A stretch of 64,000 nt of DNA from Candidatus Woesearchaeota archaeon (GTDB lineage: Archaea; Nanobdellota; Nanobdellia; Woesearchaeales; GW2011-AR15): assembly GCA_016928835.1 (NCBI GenBank), contig JAFGJW010000007.1, positions 12,158-76,157 on the forward strand. Reading direction: 5' to 3'. The notes beneath the pieces were generated by a model that was not told where the DNA came from, ran no database searches, and saw only the letters and a program-made list of their open reading frames with translations. The position numbers and the translations under genes are program-made. This document shows, piece after piece, positions 3,411 to 54,428 of the stretch (the stretch's first letter is position 1; every line of letters starts with the position of its first letter).

Positions 3411-4248
3411 GGTTAAGCTACCTTGTTCCCAAAATTACGGAAGAATTAATTCTATTCTTAAAAAGCATAATCTCCATACAGTCTGCGAGGAAGCTTCATG
3501 CCCTAATCTGGGAGAATGCTGGGACTCTGGCACTGCCACATTCATGATTCTTGGGGATATTTGCACTAGGAATTGTCTCTATTGCAATGTTAAGAGCGGG
3601 AAACCAATGAGACCAGACAAAAAAGAGCCAAAGAGAATAGCAGAGGTGGTTAGTAAGTTAGGATTAAATTATGTTGTGATTACTTCTGTTACAAGAGATG
3701 ATTTAGAAGATGGAGGCGCCTCTGCCTTTGCTGCTTGCATAAAAGAGATAAGAAAGTTAAATAGGAACATAAAAGTAGAACTTTTGATACCGGATTATAG
3801 TGGAGATTCCCTAAAAAAGTTAGTAGATGCAAATCCTGATGTACTTAACCATAATATTGAGGTTGTTGAACCTTTGTTCAAAAGACTAAGACCCCAGGGA
3901 GACTACAGAAAATCATTACAGACTCTAAAAGATATTAAAAAGATTAATAAAAATCAAGTAACAAAATCTGGTTTTATAATCGGCTTTGGAGAGATAGAAA
4001 AGGATATTAAATCAACAATAGAAAACTTAAGAAAAGCTGATGTTGATATTCTAACCATTGGGCAATATTTAAGACCAAGTTTAAAGAATGTTCCTGTGGA
4101 GAAATATTACCTCCCAGAAGATTTCAATAAATTGAGAGAATATGCTGTCTCTATTGGAATTCAAGAGATAAAATGCGGACCCCTAGTTAGATCTTCTTAC
4201 AAAGCTAGTCATATGTATAAGAAGGTGTATGAGCATCAAAAGGATTGA
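3388..4248 (+). CDS. lipA: lipoyl synthase (radical SAM)
   Basis: N-terminal auxiliary cluster CEEASCPNLGEC and radical SAM CTRNCLYC motif; 23-nt overlap with gcvH. Confidence 0.9.
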   Translation: MRSSLKPKVKLPCSQNYGRINSILKKHNLHTVCEEASCPNLGECWDSGTATFMILGDICTRNCLYCNVKSGKPMRPDKKEPKRIAEVVSKLGLNYVVITSVTRDDLEDGGASAFAACIKEIRKLNRNIKVELLIPDYSGDSLKKLVDANPDVLNHNIEVVEPLFKRLRPQGDYRKSLQTLKDIKKINKNQVTKSGFIIGFGEIEKDIKSTIENLRKADVDILTIGQYLRPSLKNVPVEKYYLPEDFNKLREYAVSIGIQEIKCGPLVRSSYKASHMYKKVYEHQKD

Positions 4249-5263
4249 ATTCATGGGGCAGTCTTCTCAATGCTATTGATAATCTTTCGTGGAGCACATC
4301 TTCAAGTGAAATTCTTTTTTTATCTAAATACTCCTGGCATTGTTTCTTATATAAGTCACGATTGTACAACCCGACTAAATAACCTGCCACAATAAGCTGC
4401 ATAAAACTGCGAGCTCCTGTCATCTGAATCATGCCACTTCTTTGCTGGGCCACATAGATCTCAGTGACTCCAAGTTCCGCTGCTGTTTCTTCAATAGAAT
4501 AGCCTCTTGCTCCATAGAGCAGTGTAACAGCTTCTCCTGGAGAAAAGACACTCTGTTGTCCGAGTAACTCTGCAGGCAAATACATATCTTCTAGTTGGCT
4601 TATTGCATTTTCCAAACCCGCGGCAAAGCCAATATTATATTTTATGCATATCTTATCCATTAAAGATTTGGTCAACTGTGCTTTCTCCAGTATTAAAATT
4701 GCAGCCTTGCTGATGCTGGTTCTCAGTGTTCCCTTTCTCGTGTTAAACGTCCTTAAAGCAAGACAGATTCTCCGTCGATAATTGCTTATACGGCCAGGAC
4801 AATAGCCCAACCTCTCAGCTGTTTCCTCAGTAGTATAGCCTAAAATTGCATCTAACAATACTCTTCCCTCAAGATAGTTAAATCCGATTCTTAACTGAGA
4901 AGATGGTTCTGCTGGTTCTCCTCTGATACACATGGCTTCCTGCTGAGAGCGGATAGGTATTTCAAGGTGCCTCATCCATAGTCCAATATCCTGGTCCCTT
5001 AGATCTCTATGATAGCTTGACTCAGTGGTAACGCGCATTGCCACTTCCTCTAAACTCATGCGCTCTACATGATATAAATATGCAAGATAAAAAGGTAAAG
5101 TGGGGGGCAAGTCTATCTTTTCTGTGCGAAATTCAGCAAATATATAGGGTGCAAGAGACAATTGGACTTTTTCCATTGTTCCTCTTACATAGGGATTTTC
5201 TAGTTCATTCACACTCCTGATAGTCTCTCTACCGATATCTTCAACACTCGTAAGTTGAGTCAT
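4205..5263 (-). CDS. hypothetical protein with three sigma-70 region-4/LuxR-like helix-turn-helix repeats
   Basis: 352 aa; repeated modules GYTTEETAERLGY.., GYSIEETAAELGVTEIYV.., MSLEEVAMRV..; Arg-rich, atypical for this AT-rich genome. Confidence 0.5.
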   Translation of the reverse strand: MTQLTSVEDIGRETIRSVNELENPYVRGTMEKVQLSLAPYIFAEFRTEKIDLPPTLPFYLAYLYHVERMSLEEVAMRVTTESSYHRDLRDQDIGLWMRHLEIPIRSQQEAMCIRGEPAEPSSQLRIGFNYLEGRVLLDAILGYTTEETAERLGYCPGRISNYRRRICLALRTFNTRKGTLRTSISKAAILILEKAQLTKSLMDKICIKYNIGFAAGLENAISQLEDMYLPAELLGQQSVFSPGEAVTLLYGARGYSIEETAAELGVTEIYVAQQRSGMIQMTGARSFMQLIVAGYLVGLYNRDLYKKQCQEYLDKKRISLEDVLHERLSIALRRLPHEFNPFDAHTPSYTYD

Positions 5264-34320: not shown

Positions 34321-37300
34321 TTATTTTATTCCCAGTTCCTCTTCTTTTTTCTTAACAAGCAAAGTTGTTTTCATCACGGTGTCAGGATTCAAAGACATTG
34401 ACTTGATTCCACATTTAACCAAGAATTCAGCAAACTCCGGAAAATCACTCGGTGCTTGTCCACATATCCCGATGTACTTCCCTTTCCTGTTCGCAATCTC
34501 GATAACCTGCTTTACTAATTTCTTTACTGCATCATTTCTCTCATCATAGATGTGGCTCACTAATTCTGAATCTCTATCTAAGCCAAGTGTTAATTGTGTA
34601 AGGTCATTGCTCCCTATAGAGAAACCATCAAAAATGTCTAAAAACTCTTCTGCCATAATAACATTACTTGGAATCTCGCACATACATACTATCCTCAGTT
34701 CATTTTCACCTTGTTTCAAACCAAATTCTTCCATTGTCTCAACTACTTTCTTGCCTTCATCAGCTGTCCTGCAAAAAGGTATCATAACAACTATATTAGT
34801 TAATCCCATCTCATCTCTGACTCTCTTTAATGCTTTACATTCCAAATTAAAAGCTTCTTTATAGTTCTTGTCATAATAGCGGGAGGCTCCTCTCCATCCA
34901 ATCATTGGGTTATCTTCCTCTGGCTCAAACTGCTTCCCCCCTATAAGATTTGCATATTCATTGCTCTTAAAATCACTTAATCTTACAATAACATCATGAG
35001 GATAGAAGGCGGCTCCTAACATAGCAATACCCTGGGCCAACTTATCAACAAAATAATCTCCCTTTTTCTTATACCCATAGGTAAGCTCTGAGATAATCTT
35101 CTTCGCTTTATTATCCTTTAATTTATCATACTTCAGCAATGCCAATGGATGCACCCGGATATATGAATTAATAATGAACTCCTCTCTGGCAAGACCAACC
35201 CCGTCATTTGGAATAAAACTTAGGTCAAATGCCTGTTCTGGATTGCCAATATTCATCATAATTTTTGTCTTGGGCCTTTTCAATCCCTTTAGGTCAGTCT
35301 CTTCAACTTCAAATTTCAAGAGTCCTTCATATACATAGCCATTTGTGCCTTGGGAGCAATCAACTGTTACTTTCTGGCCTGACTTTATTTTGGTTGTTGC
35401 TTTGAGTGTACCGACAATGCACGGTATCCCTAACTCTCTTGACACAATCGCTGCATGGCAATTATTTACTAGAACCGGTGTTAATCTACTGGTAAAAACA
35501 ATGTAGTTGTGGTTATCAGCCACTGTAATATTATATACTTCCTTAATCCCCTTCTCTTCCACAAAAGAGACTCTCTGCATTCGTGTGTCTGATTCAATAA
35601 GTTTATTCAGTTCATACTTTTCTCTTTCACTGCACATAGGGAGAACATTCTTAATAATTTTGTCAGCGTCAATCATTAAATTATTTACTACATATGTTTT
35701 TATTCTTCCTTTATAATTCACCTTATCAACAATATCTCCCATAACTTGTTTAGCAGAAAAGAATCTGACACCATTTACTGTTCTATTATCCTTTCCCTTG
35801 ACTCTTTTTGTGTATGCTAATATCTCATCAATGCGCTCAACTATCTGCACATTCCATATTGTTCTATTTGTTGTTATCTGGGGCACAACTCCAAGTCTCA
35901 AGCAACTTACAACAATGGACTCCAGTAATAACCTGCTTGAGCAATATATATTTATTCTGCTACTCTGGTGGCTATAGCTTCCGTCTCCATCAATAACTCC
36001 TGCAAGATAATTTAAGACTAAAGTTGTATCCGCTTGCAGAAGCGTCTGGACTATCAGCTGCTTCTCTTGGTTCAATTGAGTAGCTATCTGTTTACTATAA
36101 CACCTGTATGCGGTTGCGTTGCCTTCAACAAGTTCTCCCCTTATGAGACCAGAAGACGTTTTTTTCTTGACTGCTTTAAATGATTTGTTGAACAGCTTTT
36201 CCATGCATTGGTTTACTTGGTAAATGAACTCTTCTTTTTCCTCCGTCGGCTTTTGGATGAATTGCACTTCACCATGGGTTGATGAAAGATATATGCTTCC
36301 ATCAGTGATAAGTGCTCCTAAAAGATATGCTAATTTGTGCTCCTTATCTGTGGAAGTGTTTAGCTGCGGAATCTTTTGGGCTAATAGAAGCATCTGTTCA
36401 CCTTCAAGCAATGTGGATACCTGTCTACCCACTAGTTCTCTGTCTTTAAAAGTAAGCATTTTATGGTCTGGTGTTAAGTTCAAGGTATTTCCTTTCATTC
36501 TTCCTGTTTGGGAAACACCTACTTCAATCACTTCTGATTCTCTCTTCATTGAAGCTATTACTGGTTTCCACTCAATTTTCAAGGTTTCTTTGTTTAAAGA
36601 GGGGACATATAGACCATCATAATCATTAAATACCTCTTTAAAGGTCCTGAACCCTTGATTTGTAAGCAAGACGGTATCACCAGTAAAGCATGTTCTCCCT
36701 CCTCTATTAGTCACAATAGCAGAGGCAATCTTCATTATGGGCTCCCAATCCGGGTCGGTCATATCAGTAACCAAAACCTGGCCTTTCTTAAAATTCCCAA
36801 TCTGCTTTACCTCGGCAATCACATTTGCGTCTCCCTGCCCGATCATCTCACCAACTGCATTACCTTCAACAAGCACCTGGCCTTTTTCTTTCAGCACATA
36901 TTTTTTCAAGACATCCACATCTTTTTGGGAATGGACTGTCTCAGGCCTTGCCTGTACAATATATAGATGTTTGTCAACACCATCCTTAGCCCATTCCATG
37001 TCCATGGGCTTGAAATGGCCTGCCTTTGCTGAATAATGATCCTCTATTATACAACCCCATTTAGCCAGTGTCAAGATCTCATCATCTGTCAGACAGAATT
37101 TTTTTCTCTCGCCTTCTGTAGTATTTATGTTTTTTGTTGGTTTATTCCTGTCAGTGGAATAAACCATTTTTTTCTCTTTTGAACCTACTTTTTTGCTTAG
37201 GATAGGTTTGAAACCCTTCTTCATTGTAGGCTTGAAGACATAGAACTCATCTGGATTGACTGCACCCTGCACGATATTTTCTCCTAGGCCCCATGAGCCT

Positions 37301-37974
37301 GTGACAAAAACAACATCTTTGAATCCTGACTCAGTGTCAATTGAGAACATGACACCAGAGCATGCCTTGTCGCTCCTGACCATTTTCTGGACAGCAATAC
37401 TCAGTCCGATTGAGAAATGGTCAAAGCCTTTGTCTTCCCTATATGAAATCGCTCTATTTGTAAAAAGTGATGCAAAACATTTTTTGCAGGCATCTAATAA
37501 TTGTTTTTCTCCTCTTATATTAAGATAAGTCTCCTGCTGTCCCGCAAAGCTAGCATCTGGAAGATCTTCTGCAGTTGCACTGGACCTTACAGCCACATCA
37601 ACATTCTGCTGCTTATAGGCCTTGCACAGATTTTGATACTCTCTAGTTATTTGCTCTGCCAATTCTTTAGGCAGCTCAATATTTTTAATAAGCTTTCTTA
37701 CTTTTTCGCCTCTCTCTTGAAGATTCTTAATATTATGGGTGTCCAAGTCTTTTAATATCTCCTTTATCTTTTCTTTTGCTTGTTCTTTCTCTAATAAATA
37801 AAAATAAGAGTATGCAGTAATGGCAAAACCATTAGGCACTCTAACGCCTTTTGATGTTAATTCGCGATACATCTCTCCCAGAGATGCATTTTTTCCACCT
37901 ACTAAAGGCACATCTTCTATGCCAAGCTGGTCAAACCAAAGAATAAATGCGTTTTTTTTATCCAAGATAAACAC
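34321..37974 (-). CDS. ppsA: phosphoenolpyruvate synthase (pyruvate, water dikinase) interrupted by an in-frame intein
   Basis: ATP-grasp N-domain, phosphohistidine motif GGRT-[intein]-CHAAIVSRELGIP, PEP-utilising TIM-barrel C-domain; 1217 aa versus about 807 aa without intein. Confidence 0.9.
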   Translation of the reverse strand: MFILDKKNAFILWFDQLGIEDVPLVGGKNASLGEMYRELTSKGVRVPNGFAITAYSYFYLLEKEQAKEKIKEILKDLDTHNIKNLQERGEKVRKLIKNIELPKELAEQITREYQNLCKAYKQQNVDVAVRSSATAEDLPDASFAGQQETYLNIRGEKQLLDACKKCFASLFTNRAISYREDKGFDHFSIGLSIAVQKMVRSDKACSGVMFSIDTESGFKDVVFVTGSWGLGENIVQGAVNPDEFYVFKPTMKKGFKPILSKKVGSKEKKMVYSTDRNKPTKNINTTEGERKKFCLTDDEILTLAKWGCIIEDHYSAKAGHFKPMDMEWAKDGVDKHLYIVQARPETVHSQKDVDVLKKYVLKEKGQVLVEGNAVGEMIGQGDANVIAEVKQIGNFKKGQVLVTDMTDPDWEPIMKIASAIVTNRGGRTCFTGDTVLLTNQGFRTFKEVFNDYDGLYVPSLNKETLKIEWKPVIASMKRESEVIEVGVSQTGRMKGNTLNLTPDHKMLTFKDRELVGRQVSTLLEGEQMLLLAQKIPQLNTSTDKEHKLAYLLGALITDGSIYLSSTHGEVQFIQKPTEEKEEFIYQVNQCMEKLFNKSFKAVKKKTSSGLIRGELVEGNATAYRCYSKQIATQLNQEKQLIVQTLLQADTTLVLNYLAGVIDGDGSYSHQSSRINIYCSSRLLLESIVVSCLRLGVVPQITTNRTIWNVQIVERIDEILAYTKRVKGKDNRTVNGVRFFSAKQVMGDIVDKVNYKGRIKTYVVNNLMIDADKIIKNVLPMCSEREKYELNKLIESDTRMQRVSFVEEKGIKEVYNITVADNHNYIVFTSRLTPVLVNNCHAAIVSRELGIPCIVGTLKATTKIKSGQKVTVDCSQGTNGYVYEGLLKFEVEETDLKGLKRPKTKIMMNIGNPEQAFDLSFIPNDGVGLAREEFIINSYIRVHPLALLKYDKLKDNKAKKIISELTYGYKKKGDYFVDKLAQGIAMLGAAFYPHDVIVRLSDFKSNEYANLIGGKQFEPEEDNPMIGWRGASRYYDKNYKEAFNLECKALKRVRDEMGLTNIVVMIPFCRTADEGKKVVETMEEFGLKQGENELRIVCMCEIPSNVIMAEEFLDIFDGFSIGSNDLTQLTLGLDRDSELVSHIYDERNDAVKKLVKQVIEIANRKGKYIGICGQAPSDFPEFAEFLVKCGIKSMSLNPDTVMKTTLLVKKKEEELGIK
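35461..36690 (-). mobile_element. intein with LAGLIDADG homing-endonuclease domain inside ppsA (410 aa)
   Basis: Begins CFTGDTVLL (Cys1), ends VLVNN followed by +1 Cys; two LAGLIDADG motifs LLGALITDGS and LAGVIDGDGS; boundaries checked against nucleotide sequence. Confidence 0.85.
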
Positions 37975-38061: not shown

Positions 38062-38907
38062 TTAACCTAAATTAAACCTACAAGTTCCACAGCGAGAATA
38101 TATTTTATAGGTTGCGGGTTGTGAAGGACTAAAAGCCTCATGTTCCCCATCCGGATCTAAAGCAGAATAAGGAATTTTAATGTCGCGTTTATGATATAGT
38201 TCAAGAAACAGAGCTCTAGGCAAGAGTATTACTCGAGGATGAGTCATATCTCCACACCTATTACGAGGCAGATGCACTTTGTCTCCATTTTTTGTAACAA
38301 CTACTAATTTTGGTGAACTTGCTTCTCTTACTTCGCTTTCAGTTTGGTATGTAGGCACTAGAGGAATATTTAGATAAGGTTTTCCTTCCCATACAAGAAT
38401 GTGCAAACCTTGCTCTGTAGGAAGCCTTGTAATTAGCTCATGCCTCAAGGCCTGCTCAATAGGATACATCAATGGTTTTGGGAATGGAGGGAAAAAGAAC
38501 AATGGTTCAACAAAAGAAGTATCTATTTTTCCTGCTTCATGTTCAACAATAGAGGTAAGTGAATCCGCACAACTGTCGGCAATCCTCACAAGAGTCTCTT
38601 CGGGTCTGGTTTTTGCGGATATTTGTTCTCGAATTTTGCGTCTTATTGAATAATTAAAAAAAGTCTTATCGAATATAAAATTAAAATCTTCATTCCCAGG
38701 AAACCATAATCCTTGCGGTACAAAAGTTATTGCTAGATTAACATCAGTTAAGTCTTGAGTTTCTGACCGGTCTATCCAATAAAAATAAATTCCCCTTGGC
38801 ACATGTAATCTTCTTAACACATAAGCTAGCATGTTTGCTTTTCTTAGCATGTTATTCTTAAACTTTTCTGTTTTAACCACTCGAAAGTACTTACAAAACC
38901 GAAACAT
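38062..38907 (-). CDS. hypothetical protein
   Basis: 281 aa, Arg/Pro-rich, C-terminal Cys pair; no recognisable family. Confidence 0.45.
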   Translation of the reverse strand: MFRFCKYFRVVKTEKFKNNMLRKANMLAYVLRRLHVPRGIYFYWIDRSETQDLTDVNLAITFVPQGLWFPGNEDFNFIFDKTFFNYSIRRKIREQISAKTRPEETLVRIADSCADSLTSIVEHEAGKIDTSFVEPLFFFPPFPKPLMYPIEQALRHELITRLPTEQGLHILVWEGKPYLNIPLVPTYQTESEVREASSPKLVVVTKNGDKVHLPRNRCGDMTHPRVILLPRALFLELYHKRDIKIPYSALDPDGEHEAFSPSQPATYKIYSRCGTCRFNLG

Positions 38908-39299
38908 TTAAATAGGAGTTCTAACTACTATCTAGTAACTACAATGAGGCGTAAGAGCCAATTCTCATTATCACCCCACTCAAAACTCTTACGCCGCATA
39001 AACATTGAAAATGGAATACGAAAAAGACATCGAAATCCTAAGAACGTTGAGAAAAAACTCTAAAAAAAGGAGTTTTAATGAGGCTATTAACAGCAAAGAG
39101 CTTAGTGCTGATGAGCTTGACGAATTATTTTTATCATAGGTGATATTATGGCTAGGATCAGACGATCAAAAACAAATACTACCTTTTTCATGGACATACC
39201 TAAAGACGAGGAGAATGGAAAGAGATGGAAAAAGATTGAAGATGGTCTTGAATATGAATTCTAGTTTTTAAATAAAAATATTAACTCTTACTATTTCTA

Positions 39300-39490
39300 C
39301 ATGCATTACGCCAAGGTGGGACAATTCGGCTACTCCGACGGTCTCGAACAGCCCTGCTGTGCCTGGAGGCCTTCGCGGCTAAAAGGCTTTCGGGCAAACC
39401 GTTTCCTTCGGGAACTCCCGGTTCAAAGAACCTTTTAAGAAAAAATCTTAGGTTTTGAAAGTCCGGGCCTTGGCGCCTTTCAATATCAAT
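39300..39490 (+). ncRNA. GC-rich structured non-coding island; contains RNase P RNA P2-P3-P4(5' strand)-like segment (TTCAAA / hairpin / TTTGAA / GAAAGTCCGGGC)
   Basis: About 55% GC in non-coding DNA of an AT-rich genome; exact match to RNase P CR-I core GAAAGUCCGGGC preceded by P2/P3-like pairing; remainder of an RNase P RNA not found, so identity unresolved. Confidence 0.3.
39466..39478. repeat. 13-bp direct repeat GGCCTTGGCGCCT (left copy) flanking AbrB-RelE cassette
   Basis: Identical 13-mer at 39466-39478 and 40298-40310. Confidence 0.8.
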
Positions 39491-39496
39491 GCATTT

Positions 39497-39799
39497 CTAT
39501 TGCTCATCCTTATGTGAATACTCAACAAATCTAATTATTCTCTCTTGTTCATAGTAAACATAGTAAAGTCTAAAAGAATCAAGATAAACCTCTTGTTCAC
39601 CTTTCCTTGAATACCTCATGTGCTTCCCAATGCTGGGATTCTGAACAATTTTTAATATTTGTTTGAATAGTCTAATCTTTGTATTGGTATCCTTAGTTTT
39701 TTTTATAAGTTTATTAAATTCTTCTGAGAAACGTAACGAGATGTTTTTTTCCTTTGCTGTGGCTAAAATAAGGATTCTAATCTCTTCAATTGAGCTCAT
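39497..39799 (-). CDS. RelE/ParE-superfamily toxin
   Basis: 100 aa; C-terminal FRLYYVYYEQERIIRFVEYSHKDE resembles RelE/ParE fold terminus; 4-nt overlap with upstream antitoxin. Confidence 0.6.
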   Translation of the reverse strand: MSSIEEIRILILATAKEKNISLRFSEEFNKLIKKTKDTNTKIRLFKQILKIVQNPSIGKHMRYSRKGEQEVYLDSFRLYYVYYEQERIIRFVEYSHKDEQ

Positions 39800-40067
39800 T
39801 TTAGGACTTCTTCAGCATCAAGTTCCTTGCCTTCTTCCATATCCTGCAATATTTTGTCGTGCCTCATTGCCCTAACAAAATCTCTTGCAAATCTGCTCTT
39901 CTTTCTGTCAATATTCAGAATGTCCTTAACAGGTTTAATGACTATCTCATTATCATCAGACATTATTACCAACTGGTCATTTTCTGTCAAGCCCAAATGA
40001 TCCCGTATGTTGTTAGGTATAACAATCTGGCCGCGAGTGCTTAGTTTCGTTATTCCAATTTCCATGT
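39796..40067 (-). CDS. AbrB/MazE-type antitoxin (SpoVT_AbrB domain)
   Basis: MEIGITKLSTRGQIVIPNNIRDHLGL; start moved to internal Met with GAGGT RBS 8 nt upstream. Confidence 0.7.
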
Positions 40068-40297
40068 TTTTTACCTCAATAATACGAAAATGAAAACATT
40101 TTCGAATATCCAGAATAAAGAAATTATTCTGTATAAGTATGAAAAGTAAGATTATTATATAAATCTTTTGGAATTGAGAGAATTGTTTAGAGTTACAGAA
40201 AAATATAAAAATAATAATATCAAAATAGAACATATTATGAAGGAAAAAGGTTAGCAAAATATTTCCCAAGAATTATTCAATTATTTTTTTCAGTCAA

Positions 40298-40310
40298 GGC
40301 CTTGGCGCCT
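40298..40310. repeat. 13-bp direct repeat GGCCTTGGCGCCT (right copy)
   Basis: See left copy. Confidence 0.8.
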
Positions 40311-40421
40311 ACTTCCTAATCCTGCTATGTAAATAGTTCTAATTAATTATTAAGAACTTCTATGTGTAATCCCTTTTAAATTCGAAAAGAATATAAACTT
40401 ACCTAAGAAAGAATAGATGTT

Positions 40422-41417
40422 ATGCTTATAGTTGACATTTTAATCTTCATTGCTGCATGTTCCGTGTTAGTTAAAAGCAGTTCATGGCTCTTGAAAAGCC
40501 TCATCAAAATTTCCTTCTTCTTTAATATAAGCGATGTTATTACTGGGTCTGTAATAATGGCTATCTCCACATCTTTCCCAGAATTGTCTGTAGGCATTAT
40601 GTCAGCATTTGATCATCAGCCAATACTTGGCCTCGGCACATCAATTGGGACAATAATATTCAATCTCACTATGATAATGGGAATTATCACGCTCATGGCA
40701 CGTGGAATAAAGATGAGGAATAACTTGTTGCGCAAAGAACTCCTATATATGCTCTTTATTGTCTTTACTCCAGTAATCTTGATGAATGACCATTATTTTT
40801 GGCAACTCTTAGGAATATATATTGCACCGGGAATATCAAGATGGAATGGTTTTATTCTCATTGCCATTTTCTGCTTATATTTGTGGAAGATATTCTCACA
40901 ACATAAAAAATTTAATACTGTGCACCACCACGAACGCTCTTGTAATATAATGAAAGAGACTACAATTCTTTTGTTTAATTTGTCTTTGCTTTTATTAAGC
41001 GCAAAACTAAGTGTTGAATATGCTGAACTGCTTTCTGGTGAACTTGGTATTGCCAATCTATATATGGGCTTATTTATACTAGCTATTGGGACTAGTCTTC
41101 CTGAACTTGTGTTTTCTACAAGAGCAGTGCTCACCAGACACCAGGATATGGCTCTTGGAGATTTGATAGGAAGTGCAATAACCAACTCCACACTTGTTAT
41201 CGGTGCCATTGCCGTAATTTCACCCATTGGTGAGAATATCAAGGCATTGTTTATTAGCAGTATGTTTATGCTAGTAATTTGCTTCATATTTTTCACATTT
41301 GCTGAGAGCGGCAGAGAATTAAGCTGGAAAGAAGGGATATCCTTGATCCTCCTATACTGTTTTTATCTGTTCATACAATTATACACAAGAACAAATCCGT
41401 TATTATTTATGCAATAG
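40422..41417 (+). CDS. CaCA-family Na+/Ca2+ exchanger (YrbG-like)
   Basis: Two alpha-repeat motifs TSFPELSV and GTSLPELVFS. Confidence 0.8.
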   Translation: MLIVDILIFIAACSVLVKSSSWLLKSLIKISFFFNISDVITGSVIMAISTSFPELSVGIMSAFDHQPILGLGTSIGTIIFNLTMIMGIITLMARGIKMRNNLLRKELLYMLFIVFTPVILMNDHYFWQLLGIYIAPGISRWNGFILIAIFCLYLWKIFSQHKKFNTVHHHERSCNIMKETTILLFNLSLLLLSAKLSVEYAELLSGELGIANLYMGLFILAIGTSLPELVFSTRAVLTRHQDMALGDLIGSAITNSTLVIGAIAVISPIGENIKALFISSMFMLVICFIFFTFAESGRELSWKEGISLILLYCFYLFIQLYTRTNPLLFMQ

Positions 41418-42527: not shown

Positions 42528-42622
42528 TGGGCCCGCCCGGATTTTCGCAAATTTTTCCCTCAACTCGAACCGGGGACCTCCGCCTTGTAAGGGCGATGTC
42601 ATAGCCACTAGACCACGAGCCC
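42528..42622 (-). tRNA. tRNA-Val (anticodon TAC) with 22-nt non-canonical intron in the T-loop (42543..42564)
   Basis: Manual fold: acceptor GGGCTCG/CGGGCCC, D-arm, anticodon stem TCGCC/GGCGG with loop CTTACAA, T-stem CCCGG/CCGGG; removing GTTGAGGGAAAAATTTGCGAAA restores canonical TTCGAAT T-loop and 73-nt length; discriminator A, no encoded CCA. Confidence 0.75.
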
Positions 42623-53490: not shown

Positions 53491-53502
53491 TTCTAAAAGA
53501 AT

Positions 53503-53772
53503 GTGGGGAGGAGGATTTTCACAAACGCCATCCAAGACCAGGGGGCTAAGCAAACGCAGTTTGCGCACGCCGCCTTTCTGGTGTGAACTGACAGATGGCA
53601 GTTCTTTTGAACCCCCGCAGGCATTTCTCCTGAATGAAACTTGATTTCACTTCAGTCTAAGCCAATAGGTGTCTTTCATTCATAGCGTGAAGCTCATCAC
53701 ACCTACGAAGCGACCTAAGCTTGGACATTTACTCCAGAAAATCTATCCCGTTTGGCCACTCCGGCATCCCCA
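53503..53772. ncRNA. GC-rich 270-nt non-coding island with complementary termini (GTGGGGA..GGAG / CTCC..TCCCCAC), candidate structured RNA
   Basis: About 50% GC; 7+4 bp terminal helix closing the element; several internal GGGGG/CCCCC pairings; family not identifiable by eye. Confidence 0.3.
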
Positions 53773-54428
53773 CATTTGAATCGGGAGTTAATTCTCTTGA
53801 GTTTCTCTTTATTTTGTAACGGGAAACTATTTAAAAAGTTATCTATCTCTTTCCGTCTTAAGCGTATTCCATAAAACTCCCGACCATATTTTTTATTAAA
53901 CCAGATTTCAGTTCCATGTGAAACATCCAACTCATTAAGCAAACTGCTAAGGCCAATCTGTAGCTGCTTACTTGCTGTCGTAAAACCTAATGAGTTACCT
54001 CTAAAACCACCATCTGTATCAAAATAACCTGCAATAAAATATCTCTTAATTTTTGATGAGTTATGTCTGATTAAAGAGGGGATAATAACAGCCGAACTCT
54101 TTGATCCTTCAGGGACTTCCATAGTTTTATTTAGGAAATTATACAACGCTTTATTTCTTATATAAATTCTCAATCGAGGTGTTCTATCCCCCTTTTGAAT
54201 TATACTTTTTGGTTTGGTCCTTGTTTTAATAATTGTCTTTATTATTTTATAGATATATAATAAAAATTTTTTATCACTAAGATCTATACTTATTCTATAA
54301 TCCTTTGACAAATCGGTCTTATGTGATTTTGGAGAATTTGACAAATTGCCATCTCCAATAATTACACCAGTTAAATAAGCAGTTTTGACATTAAGATAGA
54401 TTTTTTGAGCTTTTTTTTGATTATTCAT
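53715..54428 (-). CDS. free-standing double-motif LAGLIDADG homing endonuclease
   Basis: 237 aa; motifs LTGVIIGDGNL and IAGYFDTDGGF about 100 aa apart; last about 22 codons run into the GC-rich island. Confidence 0.8.
   Translation of the reverse strand: MNNQKKAQKIYLNVKTAYLTGVIIGDGNLSNSPKSHKTDLSKDYRISIDLSDKKFLLYIYKIIKTIIKTRTKPKSIIQKGDRTPRLRIYIRNKALYNFLNKTMEVPEGSKSSAVIIPSLIRHNSSKIKRYFIAGYFDTDGGFRGNSLGFTTASKQLQIGLSSLLNELDVSHGTEIWFNKKYGREFYGIRLRRKEIDNFLNSFPLQNKEKLKRINSRFKCGDAGVAKRDRFSGVNVQA
53750..53773. repeat. 24-nt direct repeat copy 1 (TTTGGCCACTCCGG|CATCCCCACA)
   Basis: Matches 54644-54657 plus 54702-54711. Confidence 0.7.

Follow-up and report, generated by a model that had tools for sequence, protein, structure and literature searches.

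Serine tRNA gene with two introns

The window analyzed here is a stretch of archaeal DNA of 64 kb, and all coordinates refer to positions within it. Its host belongs to Candidatus Woesearchaeota (DPANN), the name given in the NCBI record for a protein identical to one encoded near the tRNA gene described below. On its forward strand, positions 39310 to 39475 hold a 166-nt gene for tRNA-Ser(CGA) that is interrupted by two bulge-helix-bulge (BHB) introns, and directly 3′ of this gene lies an A/T-rich cassette of 819 bp (30% GC) that carries a pair of toxin-antitoxin (TA) genes. The tRNA gene has 54.2% GC, and no GC peak elsewhere in the window is as strong. A preliminary description of this DNA had noted a GC-rich island at 39300 to 39490 (about 55% GC in a background of about 35%); we obtain 51.3% for that interval and 37.1% for the window, which bears out the island, but what had been called a noncoding stretch is actually the tRNA gene. 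The forward strand folds at −73.4 kcal/mol with a z score of −4.08, compared with a z score of −2.25 for the reverse strand. An A/T-rich, TATA-like sequence, TTTAAATAAAAATATTAAC (39267 to 39286, forward strand), about 25 to 40 nt upstream of tRNA position 1, was picked out by eye as a candidate archaeal promoter.

The first exon (39310 to 39348, forward strand) comprises the 5′ strand of the acceptor stem (GCCAAGG), the D arm, the 5′ strand of the anticodon stem, and the anticodon loop up to A37, with the anticodon CGA at 39345 to 39347 on the same strand. The second (39397 to 39427, forward strand) begins with A38 and continues through the 3′ strand of the anticodon stem (ACCGT), the variable arm (TTCC-TTCG-GGAA), the 5′ strand of the T stem (CCCGG), and T-loop positions 54 to 59 (TTCAAA). 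U60, the 3′ strands of the T stem (CCGGG) and acceptor stem (CCTTGGC), and the discriminator G73 at 39475 make up the third (39462 to 39475, forward strand), and a CCT trailer follows, up to 39478. From the doubly spliced sequence, ARAGORN predicts an 86-base tRNA-Ser(cga) whose cloverleaf has an acceptor stem of 7 bp, a D stem of 3 bp, a long variable arm, and a T stem of 5 bp that closes the loop TTCAAAT, a match to the TTCRANY type; counted from position 1 to G73, the mature tRNA is 84 nt long. A long variable arm, a serine anticodon, and a G73 discriminator are serine identity elements, and the spliced sequence combines all three with the cloverleaf of a class II serine tRNA. The identity of the tRNA and the geometry of its introns are, in this sense, direct observations. 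ARAGORN makes no tRNA call on the unspliced gene, even with its intron options, and Rfam has no match to it; standard tRNA finders overlook the gene because of its two introns. A call of Ala(cgc), returned by ARAGORN only for the form lacking the T-loop intron and with the other intron shifted by 2 nt, was rejected because of the class II variable arm, G73, a C3-G70 pair in place of G3-U70, and the agreement of the BHB register with Ser(CGA).

Intron 1 (39349 to 39396, forward strand; 48 nt) occupies the canonical position 37/38 and is GC rich (64.6%), in contrast to intron 2 (39428 to 39461, forward strand; 34 nt), which lies at T-loop position 59/60, is A/T rich (26.5% GC), and has the 3′ end TGAAAG. 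The 48-nt anticodon-loop intron is also called by ARAGORN after removal of the T-loop intron. In the BHB structure of intron 1, the outer helix is the 5-bp anticodon stem, the central 4 bp are C39343-G39394, U-G, C-G, and G39346-C39391, and the bulges, AA|C and CA|A, comprise 3 nt each; only 2 bp, followed by mismatches, make up the weak inner helix. The corresponding elements of intron 2 are the 5-bp T stem, a central helix of U39422-A39459, U-A, C-G, and A39425-U39456, bulges of 3 nt each (AA|G and AG|U), and an inner helix. Both introns thus have the 3-4-3 geometry of archaeal BHB introns (two 3-nt bulges, a 4-bp helix between them, and flanking helices) and are located where excision restores 7-nt anticodon and T loops, the latter with the sequence TTCAAAT.

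We infer that both introns are spliced in vivo. The archaeal tRNA-splicing endonuclease would cut within the 3-nt bulges of each, and an RtcB-type ligase would then join the exons into the class II tRNA of 84 nt, to which CCA would be added. In vitro, a DPANN endonuclease has been shown to cut a 59/60 intron from another DPANN archaeon (PMC3239211), and many disrupted tRNA genes are already on record for DPANN (PMC3239211, PMC5829648).

T-loop introns in other tRNA genes

Genome contigs were scanned for the same T-arm/intron pattern, and this yielded nine DPANN or other archaeal loci. Each time, the matched motif proved to be a tRNA T arm interrupted by a T-loop intron, and in eight of the nine, removal of that intron produced a tRNA recognized by ARAGORN, including tRNA-Ser(UGA) and tRNA-Pro(UGG). 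A first, relaxed pattern had given 24 matches on viral contigs, all of them chance matches in coding DNA. In the window itself, 59/60 introns interrupt at least two more tRNA genes, also overlooked, so that it contains at least three tRNA genes in all, where the initial tRNA search had shown none.

Resemblance to RNase P RNA

The island had been proposed to carry the 5′ portion of a reduced or fragmented RNase P RNA, on the strength of a motif, TTCAAA...AACCTTTTAAGA..TCTTAGGTT..TTTGAAAGTCCGGGC, which we find exactly as described at 39422 to 39468. Its supposed P2/P3/P2 arrangement does not correspond to RNase P anatomy, in which P3 is not flanked by P2; the pairing of TTCAAA with TTTGAA is the BHB central helix in the tRNA T loop. 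The 12-mer GAAAGTCCGGGC that had been assigned to CR-I is likewise present, and it consists of the intron 3′ end GAAAG, U60, CCGGG as the T-stem 3′ strand, and the first base of the acceptor stem. An intron in this position would have to end in UGAA, which would pair with T-loop residues U54 to A57, and the bulge AG, U60, CCGGG, and the first acceptor base would come next; the 12-mer is explained as a by-product of this T-loop-intron architecture. Every element attributed to RNase P is part of the tRNA gene, and the proposed RNA matches no Rfam family. Covariance-model searches of 39100 to 40500 and of 39285 to 39495 found no RNase P match at an E value of ≤10, and the latter stretch, 211 nt taken in isolation, was not matched at that level by SRP or other Rfam families either. 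Across the window, Rfam returned nothing at the gathering score; what appeared at an E value of ≤10 was only noise (such as snoRNA, PreQ1, and PhotoRC fragments).

The possibility that the island is the 5′ part, or a reduced or permuted form, of RNase P RNA draws on several likenesses. GAAAGUCCGGGC, as the P4 5′ strand, is an exact 12-nt match to what we take to be the CR-I core of Escherichia coli M1 RNA; GAAC-CCCGG-UU, 40 nt upstream of the 12-mer, resembles CR-V, with CCCGGUU as the putative P4 3′ strand; and a terminal helix closes the whole RNA. Against this, no Rfam RNase P family is detected at an E value of ≤10 even with lax filters, the two supposed P4 strands together make up the T stem of the tRNA, and the acceptor stem accounts for the terminal helix. 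In RNase P RNA, CR-I lies 5′ of CR-V and pairs with it as the long-range P4, with CR-II to CR-IV, P1 to P3, P5, and P15 between or around them. Here, the 12-mer is 8 nt from the RNA 3′ end, and its sole partner is the CCCGG 40 nt upstream, with which it forms a local 5-bp T stem; equivalents of the S domain, P15, and CR-II to CR-IV are missing. Furthermore, the spliced sequence is a textbook tRNA-Ser, and an identical 11-mer of the 12-mer recurs in other archaea, in genes for tRNA-Pro, tRNA-Ser, and further intron-containing tRNAs. We regard the RNase P reading of the island, with the 12-mer as CR-I and CCCGGUU as a CR-V-like strand, as vanishingly improbable. A circularly permuted RNase P RNA reduced to the C domain, an idea prompted by the permuted Thermoproteus SRP RNA, was overturned by the genome scans, and interpretations of the hairpins as SRP RNA or K-turn/sRNA were weighed by eye and dropped.

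Toxin-antitoxin genes and flanking repeats

The toxin-antitoxin pair noted in the preliminary description is present on the reverse strand, where the antitoxin gene (39796 to 40065; 89 amino acids [aa]) lies upstream of the toxin gene (39497 to 39799; 100 aa) and overlaps it by 4 nt. The antitoxin has a DNA-binding domain of the AbrB/MazE (SpoVT) fold and matches the MazE_antitoxin profile (Pfam PF04014; E value, 3e-10) and the AbrB profile TIGR01439 (E value, 2e-13). The toxin is predicted to belong to the RelE/ParE superfamily by virtue of its family, its own matches being below threshold (ParE-like_toxin, E value of 0.013; TIGR02683, E value of 0.0074). Pfam PF05016 (ParE_toxin) is matched by 11 of 14 aligned family members (best E value, 5e-7), an alignment that includes the window's own protein, itself without a PF05016 match at an E value of ≤0.01. 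The pair would be expected to act as a TA module.

These two genes are the only ones between two direct repeats. As had been described, the identical 13-mers GGCCTTGGCGCCT occur only at 39466 and 40298, and the sequence comprises the end of the T stem, the acceptor 3′ strand, the discriminator, and CCT. Similarity between the copies reaches 26 nt at 81%, although the part 5′ of the 13-nt core is A/T rich and weak alone. The attL-like copy (39453 to 39478, forward strand; exact core, 39466 to 39478) is the functional tRNA 3′ end, and the attR-like copy TTTTTTCAGTCAAGGCCTTGGCGCCT (40285 to 40310, forward strand; exact core, 40298 to 40310) is a degraded duplicate of it. The copies are 832 bp apart and bracket the TA cassette in the manner of attL and attR; beyond the attR-like 13-mer, the DNA continues as ACTTCCTAATCC.

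Sister cassette in another genome

A blastn comparison of the window with metagenomic archaeal contigs (L113 to L115) revealed 83% identity over 39496 to 40090, 90% over 40133 to 40174, and 92.6% over 40269 to 40295. The homology spans 39496 to 40295, exactly between the repeats, and ends at both copies. Its conserved blocks extend into the A/T-rich leader of the cassette (40066 to 40297, reverse strand), where those at 40066 to 40090 and 40133 to 40174 probably serve as promoter/operator; the block at 40269 to 40295, GAATTATTCAATTATTTT, forms the cassette terminus. On L113, a tRNA-Ser(CGA) gene, interrupted by a T-loop intron of 90 nt, comes after the toxin stop codon, and the far end of the cassette carries a degraded copy of that genome's own tRNA 3′ end (22 nt at 82%) at a spacing of 740 bp. 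The cassette of L113 to L115 sits at the tRNA-Ser(CGA) of its own genome with a degraded repeat of its own, and the mature tRNA-Ser(CGA) sequences of the window and L113 are only 65% identical.

Outside the cassette, the window shares no other open reading frame (ORF) with L113 or L114. Identity among toxin homologues reaches 93%, while the neighboring housekeeping protein has no relative above 54%. The closest homologues of the Na/Ca-exchanger neighbor (≤54% identical) lie in unrelated contexts, and the upstream neighbor of 281 aa is an orphan. Among 80 metagenomic loci and six further contexts, members of the TA family outside the closest clade were not enriched beside tRNA genes and had no flanking tRNA repeats, so that targeting of tRNA genes is apparent in the two genomes of the closest clade only. 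The cassette on L116 is flanked by direct repeats of approximately 85 nt that are not identifiable as tRNA.

Integration at the tRNA 3′ end

The insert lies between direct repeats of the tRNA 3′ end, and the tRNA gene is intact at one junction. Such duplication of a tRNA 3′ end is the classical att arrangement and the signature of site-specific integration. The repeats, the limits of the cassette, and its recurrence at this tRNA species elsewhere are likewise direct observations. We read the locus as a tRNA-Ser(CGA) gene with two BHB introns and a TA cassette integrated site specifically at the tRNA 3′ end, with a probability of about 0.9. The earlier suggestion that the TA pair had inserted by site-specific recombination with duplication of its target was essentially right, but the RNA gene concerned is tRNA-Ser(CGA) and not RNase P RNA.

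Neither the cassette nor 20 mid-sized ORFs of the window include an integrase or recombinase. Because the cassette lacks a recombinase of its own, it would most likely have been integrated by an integrase supplied in trans, as for a cis-mobilizable element (CIME), or it may be a conserved deletion derivative of such an element; without an element-encoded integrase, it fits only the nonautonomous (CIME-like) category. Its presence on L113 at a tRNA-Ser(CGA) of only limited similarity to that of the window points to a small, integrase-less integrative cassette. Tentatively, and at rather less than even odds, the 0.8-kb ParE/AbrB cassette may be a distinct recombinase-less mini mobile element of Woesearchaeota that is integrated in trans, specifically at tRNA-Ser(CGA) 3′ ends, and whose att site extends to the T-loop intron/exon boundary, AG|TCC.

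An alternative that we consider unlikely is that a larger, integrase-bearing virus or plasmid once occupied the interval between the repeats and lost everything but its TA module through deletion, the module being kept by addiction. The absence of a recombinase from the cassette would fit such a history, as would the partly degraded attR copy, which suggests age; TA modules are, moreover, typical cargo of integrated elements. However, the sister cassette in a divergent host is of nearly equal size (740 versus 832 bp between repeats), the conserved 27-nt terminal block abuts the repeat likewise in the sister, and two independent deletions would not yield identical ends, whereas a single deletion derivative that spread horizontally would be equivalent to the mini-element model. 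It is far less probable still that the second 13-mer matches by chance or was left behind by a partial duplication of the tRNA gene that had nothing to do with the cassette. The exact match is indeed short, and its A/T-rich flanks extend easily, but a search with the 18-mer allowing up to three mismatches found two sites compared with 0.00 expected from 100 shuffles, the limits of cassette homology coincide with both repeat copies, and the arrangement recurs in L113 with that genome's own tRNA sequence. 

The preferred reading, site-specific integration at an intron-containing tRNA gene, unites two known kinds of feature, a tRNA gene with BHB introns and a tRNA-targeted TA cassette. It also carries a caution for annotation: GC-rich “orphan structured RNAs” of DPANN genomes that escape both ARAGORN and Rfam very often turn out to be tRNA genes with noncanonical introns. 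A 59/60 intron automatically yields ...YGAANN-U-[T stem], which can mimic RNase P CR-I in genes whose T stem reads CCGGG. As a case of insertion targeted to a tRNA 3′ end in an uncultured archaeal lineage, the TA cassette is small and clean; it was found in two divergent hosts and may help in cataloguing mobile elements and att sites in DPANN genomes. Disruption of tRNA genes has long been proposed to shield them against integrating elements. If the cassette is indeed a distinct mini-element with such an att site, it would be one adapted to an intron-containing target, and this adaptation would bear on the proposal that tRNA disruption is protective.

Comparison with known systems

Multiple and noncanonical BHB introns, such as those of tRNA-Ser(CGA) here, are known from Thermoproteales and from DPANN (e.g., the ARMAN-2 pre-tRNA-Cys with its 59/60 intron). 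The gene shares with known archaeal tRNA genes of this type its combination of 37/38 and 59/60 introns, the 3-4-3 BHB geometry, and the fact that standard finders and Rfam miss it; it shows no essential difference from known multi-intron archaeal tRNA genes and is a new example of them. Its likeness to RNase P RNA (RNaseP_arch, type T, and bacterial types A and B) is confined to the 12-mer and a G+C-rich, well-folded context, and it departs from that RNA in having no covariance-model match, P4 pseudoknot topology, or other conserved regions. The TA genes resemble type II modules that pair a RelE/ParE toxin with an AbrB/MazE (SpoVT) antitoxin in gene order, in their 4-nt overlap, in protein lengths (89 and 100 aa), and in the antitoxin domain matches; the window toxin differs from that toxin family in falling below Pfam thresholds. 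Compared with integrative elements and CIMEs at tRNA 3′ ends, the cassette is very small (0.8 kb), has no integrase within it or in the ORFs tested, and has a repeat that reaches, and perhaps crosses by 2 nt, the T-loop intron/exon boundary. It shares with these elements the direct repeats of the tRNA end, an intact tRNA at one junction, a lower GC content (30%), TA cargo, and occupation of the corresponding tRNA species in another, divergent genome.

A tRNA-Ser(CGA) gene with two introns

The strongest GC peak of the window lies at 39300-39490, where GC content reaches 51.3%, compared with 37.1% for the window. On the plus strand, this island adopts a fold of several hairpins enclosed by a terminal helix (-73.4 kcal/mol; z = -4.08 versus shuffles), whereas folding of the minus strand is not markedly better than that of shuffles (z = -2.25); therefore, the island holds a real structured RNA of ~166 nt on the plus strand. 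ARAGORN detected no tRNA in the unspliced 64 kb, and with two introns deleted it gives a tRNA-Ser(cga) of 86 bases with a regular class II cloverleaf. Exon 1 (39310-39348, +) comprises the GCCAAGG acceptor strand, the D arm, the anticodon stem, and the loop CUCGAA, and is followed by a 48-nt intron at position 37/38 (39349-39396, +). Exon 2 (39397-39427, +) supplies A38, ACCGU, the variable arm UUCC-UUCG-GGAA, the T stem CCCGG, and UUCAAA, and is followed by a 34-nt T-loop intron at position 59/60 (39428-39461, +). Exon 3 (39462-39475, +) carries U60, CCGGG, CCUUGGC, and G73, with a CCU trailer directly 3' of it.

Both introns have 3-4-3 bulge-helix-bulge (BHB) geometry. For intron 1, the outer helix is the anticodon stem (5 bp), the central helix pairs C32-G, U33-G, C34-G, and G35-C (39343-46 with 39394-91), and the bulge sequences are AA|C and CA|A; for intron 2, the outer helix is the T stem (5 bp), the central helix pairs U54-A, U55-A, C56-G, and A57-U (39422-25 with 39459-56), and the bulge sequences are AA|G and AG|U. 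By the archaeal EndA rule, cuts fall after the second bulge nucleotide, and such cuts give back the 7-nt loops CUCGAAA and UUCAAAU. With the canonical intron alone deleted, ARAGORN reports nothing; with the T-loop intron alone deleted, it reports a tRNA whose anticodon loop contains a 48-nt intron, but places that intron 2 nt off and labels the tRNA Ala(cgc). That identity is ruled out by the long variable arm, by C3-G70 in place of G3-U70, by G73, and by the BHB register, which suits Ser(CGA).

Resemblance to RNase P RNA

Every string quoted in the preliminary description is present at its position, but the interpretation of the island as part of an RNase P RNA proved wrong. Rfam searches yielded no matches in the whole window at gathering score; at E ≤ 10, neither RNase P nor SRP nor any other plausible family matched, even with the isolated 211 nt as the query and the laxest filters, and tRNA and intron parts account for the motif. 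GAAAGUCCGGGC resolves into GAA + AG + U60 + CCGGG + C66, in which GAA is a piece of UGAA, the obligatory partner of the conserved T-loop UUCA, AG represents the two bulge nucleotides, CCGGG is the T-stem 3' strand, and C66 is the first acceptor base; the CR-V-like upstream string, CCCGGUUCAAA, is the T stem plus the T loop. The likeness is thus a structural coincidence, and the same match occurs in other tRNA genes that combine a CCGGG T stem with an intron at 59/60.

A permuted mini-RNase P, prompted by a CR-V-like CCCGGUU lying 5' of a CR-I-like GAAAGUCCGGG across a hairpin, was overturned by archaeal tRNA loci with the same pattern. A scan for the bipartite pattern CCCGG-YT...GAAAGTCCGGG, with each GTDB species represented by a single genome, matched 84 stretches (80 listed), most of them by chance in bacteria. 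Nine of the listed matches come from archaeal MAGs, DPANN and others, and each of them is a tRNA T arm split in the T-loop, with the shared layout acceptor - D arm - anticodon arm - (variable arm) - CCCGG TTCAAA [intron ...YGAAAG] T CCGGG - acceptor 3' strand. Once the T-loop intron is deleted, ARAGORN calls tRNAs at eight of these nine loci, including tRNA-Ser(UGA) and tRNA-Pro(UGG).

A toxin-antitoxin cassette at the tRNA 3' end

The repeat GGCCTTGGCGCCT occurs exactly twice in the window, at the two sites described previously (39466 and 40298), and spans tRNA positions 64-73 and the CCU trailer after them. Similarity reaches 26 nt at 81% (39453-39478 versus 40285-40310), stretching back to the end of the T-loop intron; an 18-mer with ≤3 mismatches finds both repeat sites only (0.00 expected from 100 shuffles). 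The 819 bp between the repeats (39479-40297; 30.2% GC) contain only the toxin-antitoxin (TA) pair already proposed, as two overlapping minus-strand ORFs, and an A/T-rich leader. The 89-aa antitoxin (39796-40065, -) is of the MazE/AbrB type (PF04014, E 3e-10; TIGR01439, E 2e-13). The 100-aa toxin (39497-39799, -), which overlaps the antitoxin ORF, alone falls below threshold (ParE-like, E 0.013; TIGR02683 RelE/ParE, E 0.0074) and appears better placed by its family: 11 of 14 aligned family sequences, the window's own among the 14, match PF05016 ParE_toxin (best E 5e-7).

Toxin relatives reach 93%, 72%, and 69% identity, whereas those of the adjacent housekeeping gene do not exceed 54%, which argues for horizontal movement of the cassette; the same ≤54% identity of the neighboring protein's nearest relatives made synteny comparison useless. 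NCBI lists a protein identical to this neighbor under Woesearchaeota, which places the window in an archaeon of that group. The 93%-identical toxin is carried by three contigs (L113 to L115), which align with the window from 39496 to 40090 (83% nt), at 40133-40174 (90%), and at 40269-40295 (92.6%), exactly the inter-repeat interval and nothing outside it; L113 and L114 have no other ORF matching the 64-kb window. In L113, the toxin stop is followed by a tRNA gene in the same relative orientation that, minus a 90-nt T-loop intron, is tRNA-Ser(cga) (85 bases). The far end of the L113 cassette bears a degraded copy of that contig's own tRNA 3' end (AAAATGCGCTGAGATAGGGACT versus AAAATGCGCCGGGACTGGGACT; 82% identical; spacing, 740 bp), and the mature tRNAs of the window and L113 are only 65% identical. 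In two divergent hosts, the same cassette thus appears to have inserted behind one and the same tRNA species, at its 3' end, bracketed each time by the local tRNA end, as would be the behavior of a site-specific integrative element. From the tRNA-end repeats and this recurrence, the earlier suggestion of a TA insertion beside a structured RNA was right, the RNA being tRNA-Ser(CGA).

No recombinase was found in the cassette or among 20 other ORFs tested from the window, and therefore the cassette is best described as CIME-like (a cis-mobilizable element without its own recombinase), mobilized in trans; the alternative is a single deletion derivative that has spread. More distant TA-family members occupy diverse contexts; they lack flanking tRNA repeats and show no enrichment of tRNA genes nearby. 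One clade (contigs L116 to L118), carrying a 72%-identical TA, is flanked by direct repeats of another kind; in L116 these lie at 3608-3687 and 4312-4394, ~705 bp apart, as two blocks of 19 nt (95%) and 24 nt (96%), and are not recognizable as tRNA. These repeats could mark an alternative attachment site used by the same family of cassettes. In the Woesearchaeota contig L119 (JAANXH010000054), the region upstream of the antitoxin (3560-3690) contains a long nested inverted repeat that is almost perfect, CGAAAAAGTGGC...CAGAGGC...CCCTACA / TGTAGGG...GCCTCTG...GCCACTTTTTCG; this repeat could represent either a structured RNA or a site of recombination.

Other hidden tRNA genes and neighboring features

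In practice, the apparent lack of tRNA genes in the window is an artifact: the window contains at least three with introns at 59/60. The second, tRNA-Val(UAC) (42528-42622, -), has a 22-nt T-loop intron at 59/60, coincides with the second-highest GC peak (0.56, 120-nt window), and is called by ARAGORN (73 bases) only with the intron deleted. The third (53502-53773, -) is class II-like and has a long variable region; one intron of 90 nt interrupts its T-loop at 59/60, and another of ~86 nt holds C/D-box-like motifs (GUGAUGAG ... CUGA); the Gln(ctg) call obtained from its partly spliced form is not credible. An ORF of 237 aa encoding a LAGLIDADG_3 homing-endonuclease domain (53715-54428, -; E 4e-13) ends ~58 nt inside the 5' part of this gene. 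Elsewhere, a PEP synthase/PPDK-family gene (34321-37974, -) is split by an intein that carries a LAGLIDADG domain, as judged from the Pfam families assigned to the identical Logan contig.

A 40-nt module of the L113 tRNA-Ser T-loop intron (3423-3462) recurs twice (4068-4107 and 4235-4274; 70-85% identity), ~0.6-0.8 kb away, within an apparent multi-intron tRNA gene (minus strand, ~4020-4340) that also has a 32-nt repeat (4153-4297), which suggests that intron modules spread between tRNA genes. In Euryarchaeota archaeon SM23-78 (LSSJ01000013.1), the first 14 nt of a tRNA-Ser-like gene (GCCACGGTCGCATA) are duplicated ~70 nt upstream; such a duplication may be another insertion scar, on the 5' side. 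Just upstream of the window's tRNA-Ser gene are two small back-to-back ORFs (39005-39271, +; 44 aa and, depending on the start codon, 38-43 aa) with no Pfam match, preceded by a 14-nt inverted repeat (38944-38999). The tRNA gene's 281-aa neighbor (38062-38907, -) is an orphan whose sole match among 5.8 billion clustered proteins is itself.

Comparison with known systems

Introns at 59/60 are documented in DPANN archaea, and in vitro cleavage by the ARMAN-2 endonuclease has been shown for one of them (PMC3239211); a survey with a Woesearchaeota genome among those covered reported that disrupted tRNA genes are numerous and tRNA sets incomplete in DPANN (PMC5829648). The window's tRNA-Ser(CGA) gene is a new example of this known kind of disrupted archaeal tRNA gene, and the cassette at its 3' end is a small, tidy, possibly non-autonomous tRNA-targeting element, likewise of a well-known category.
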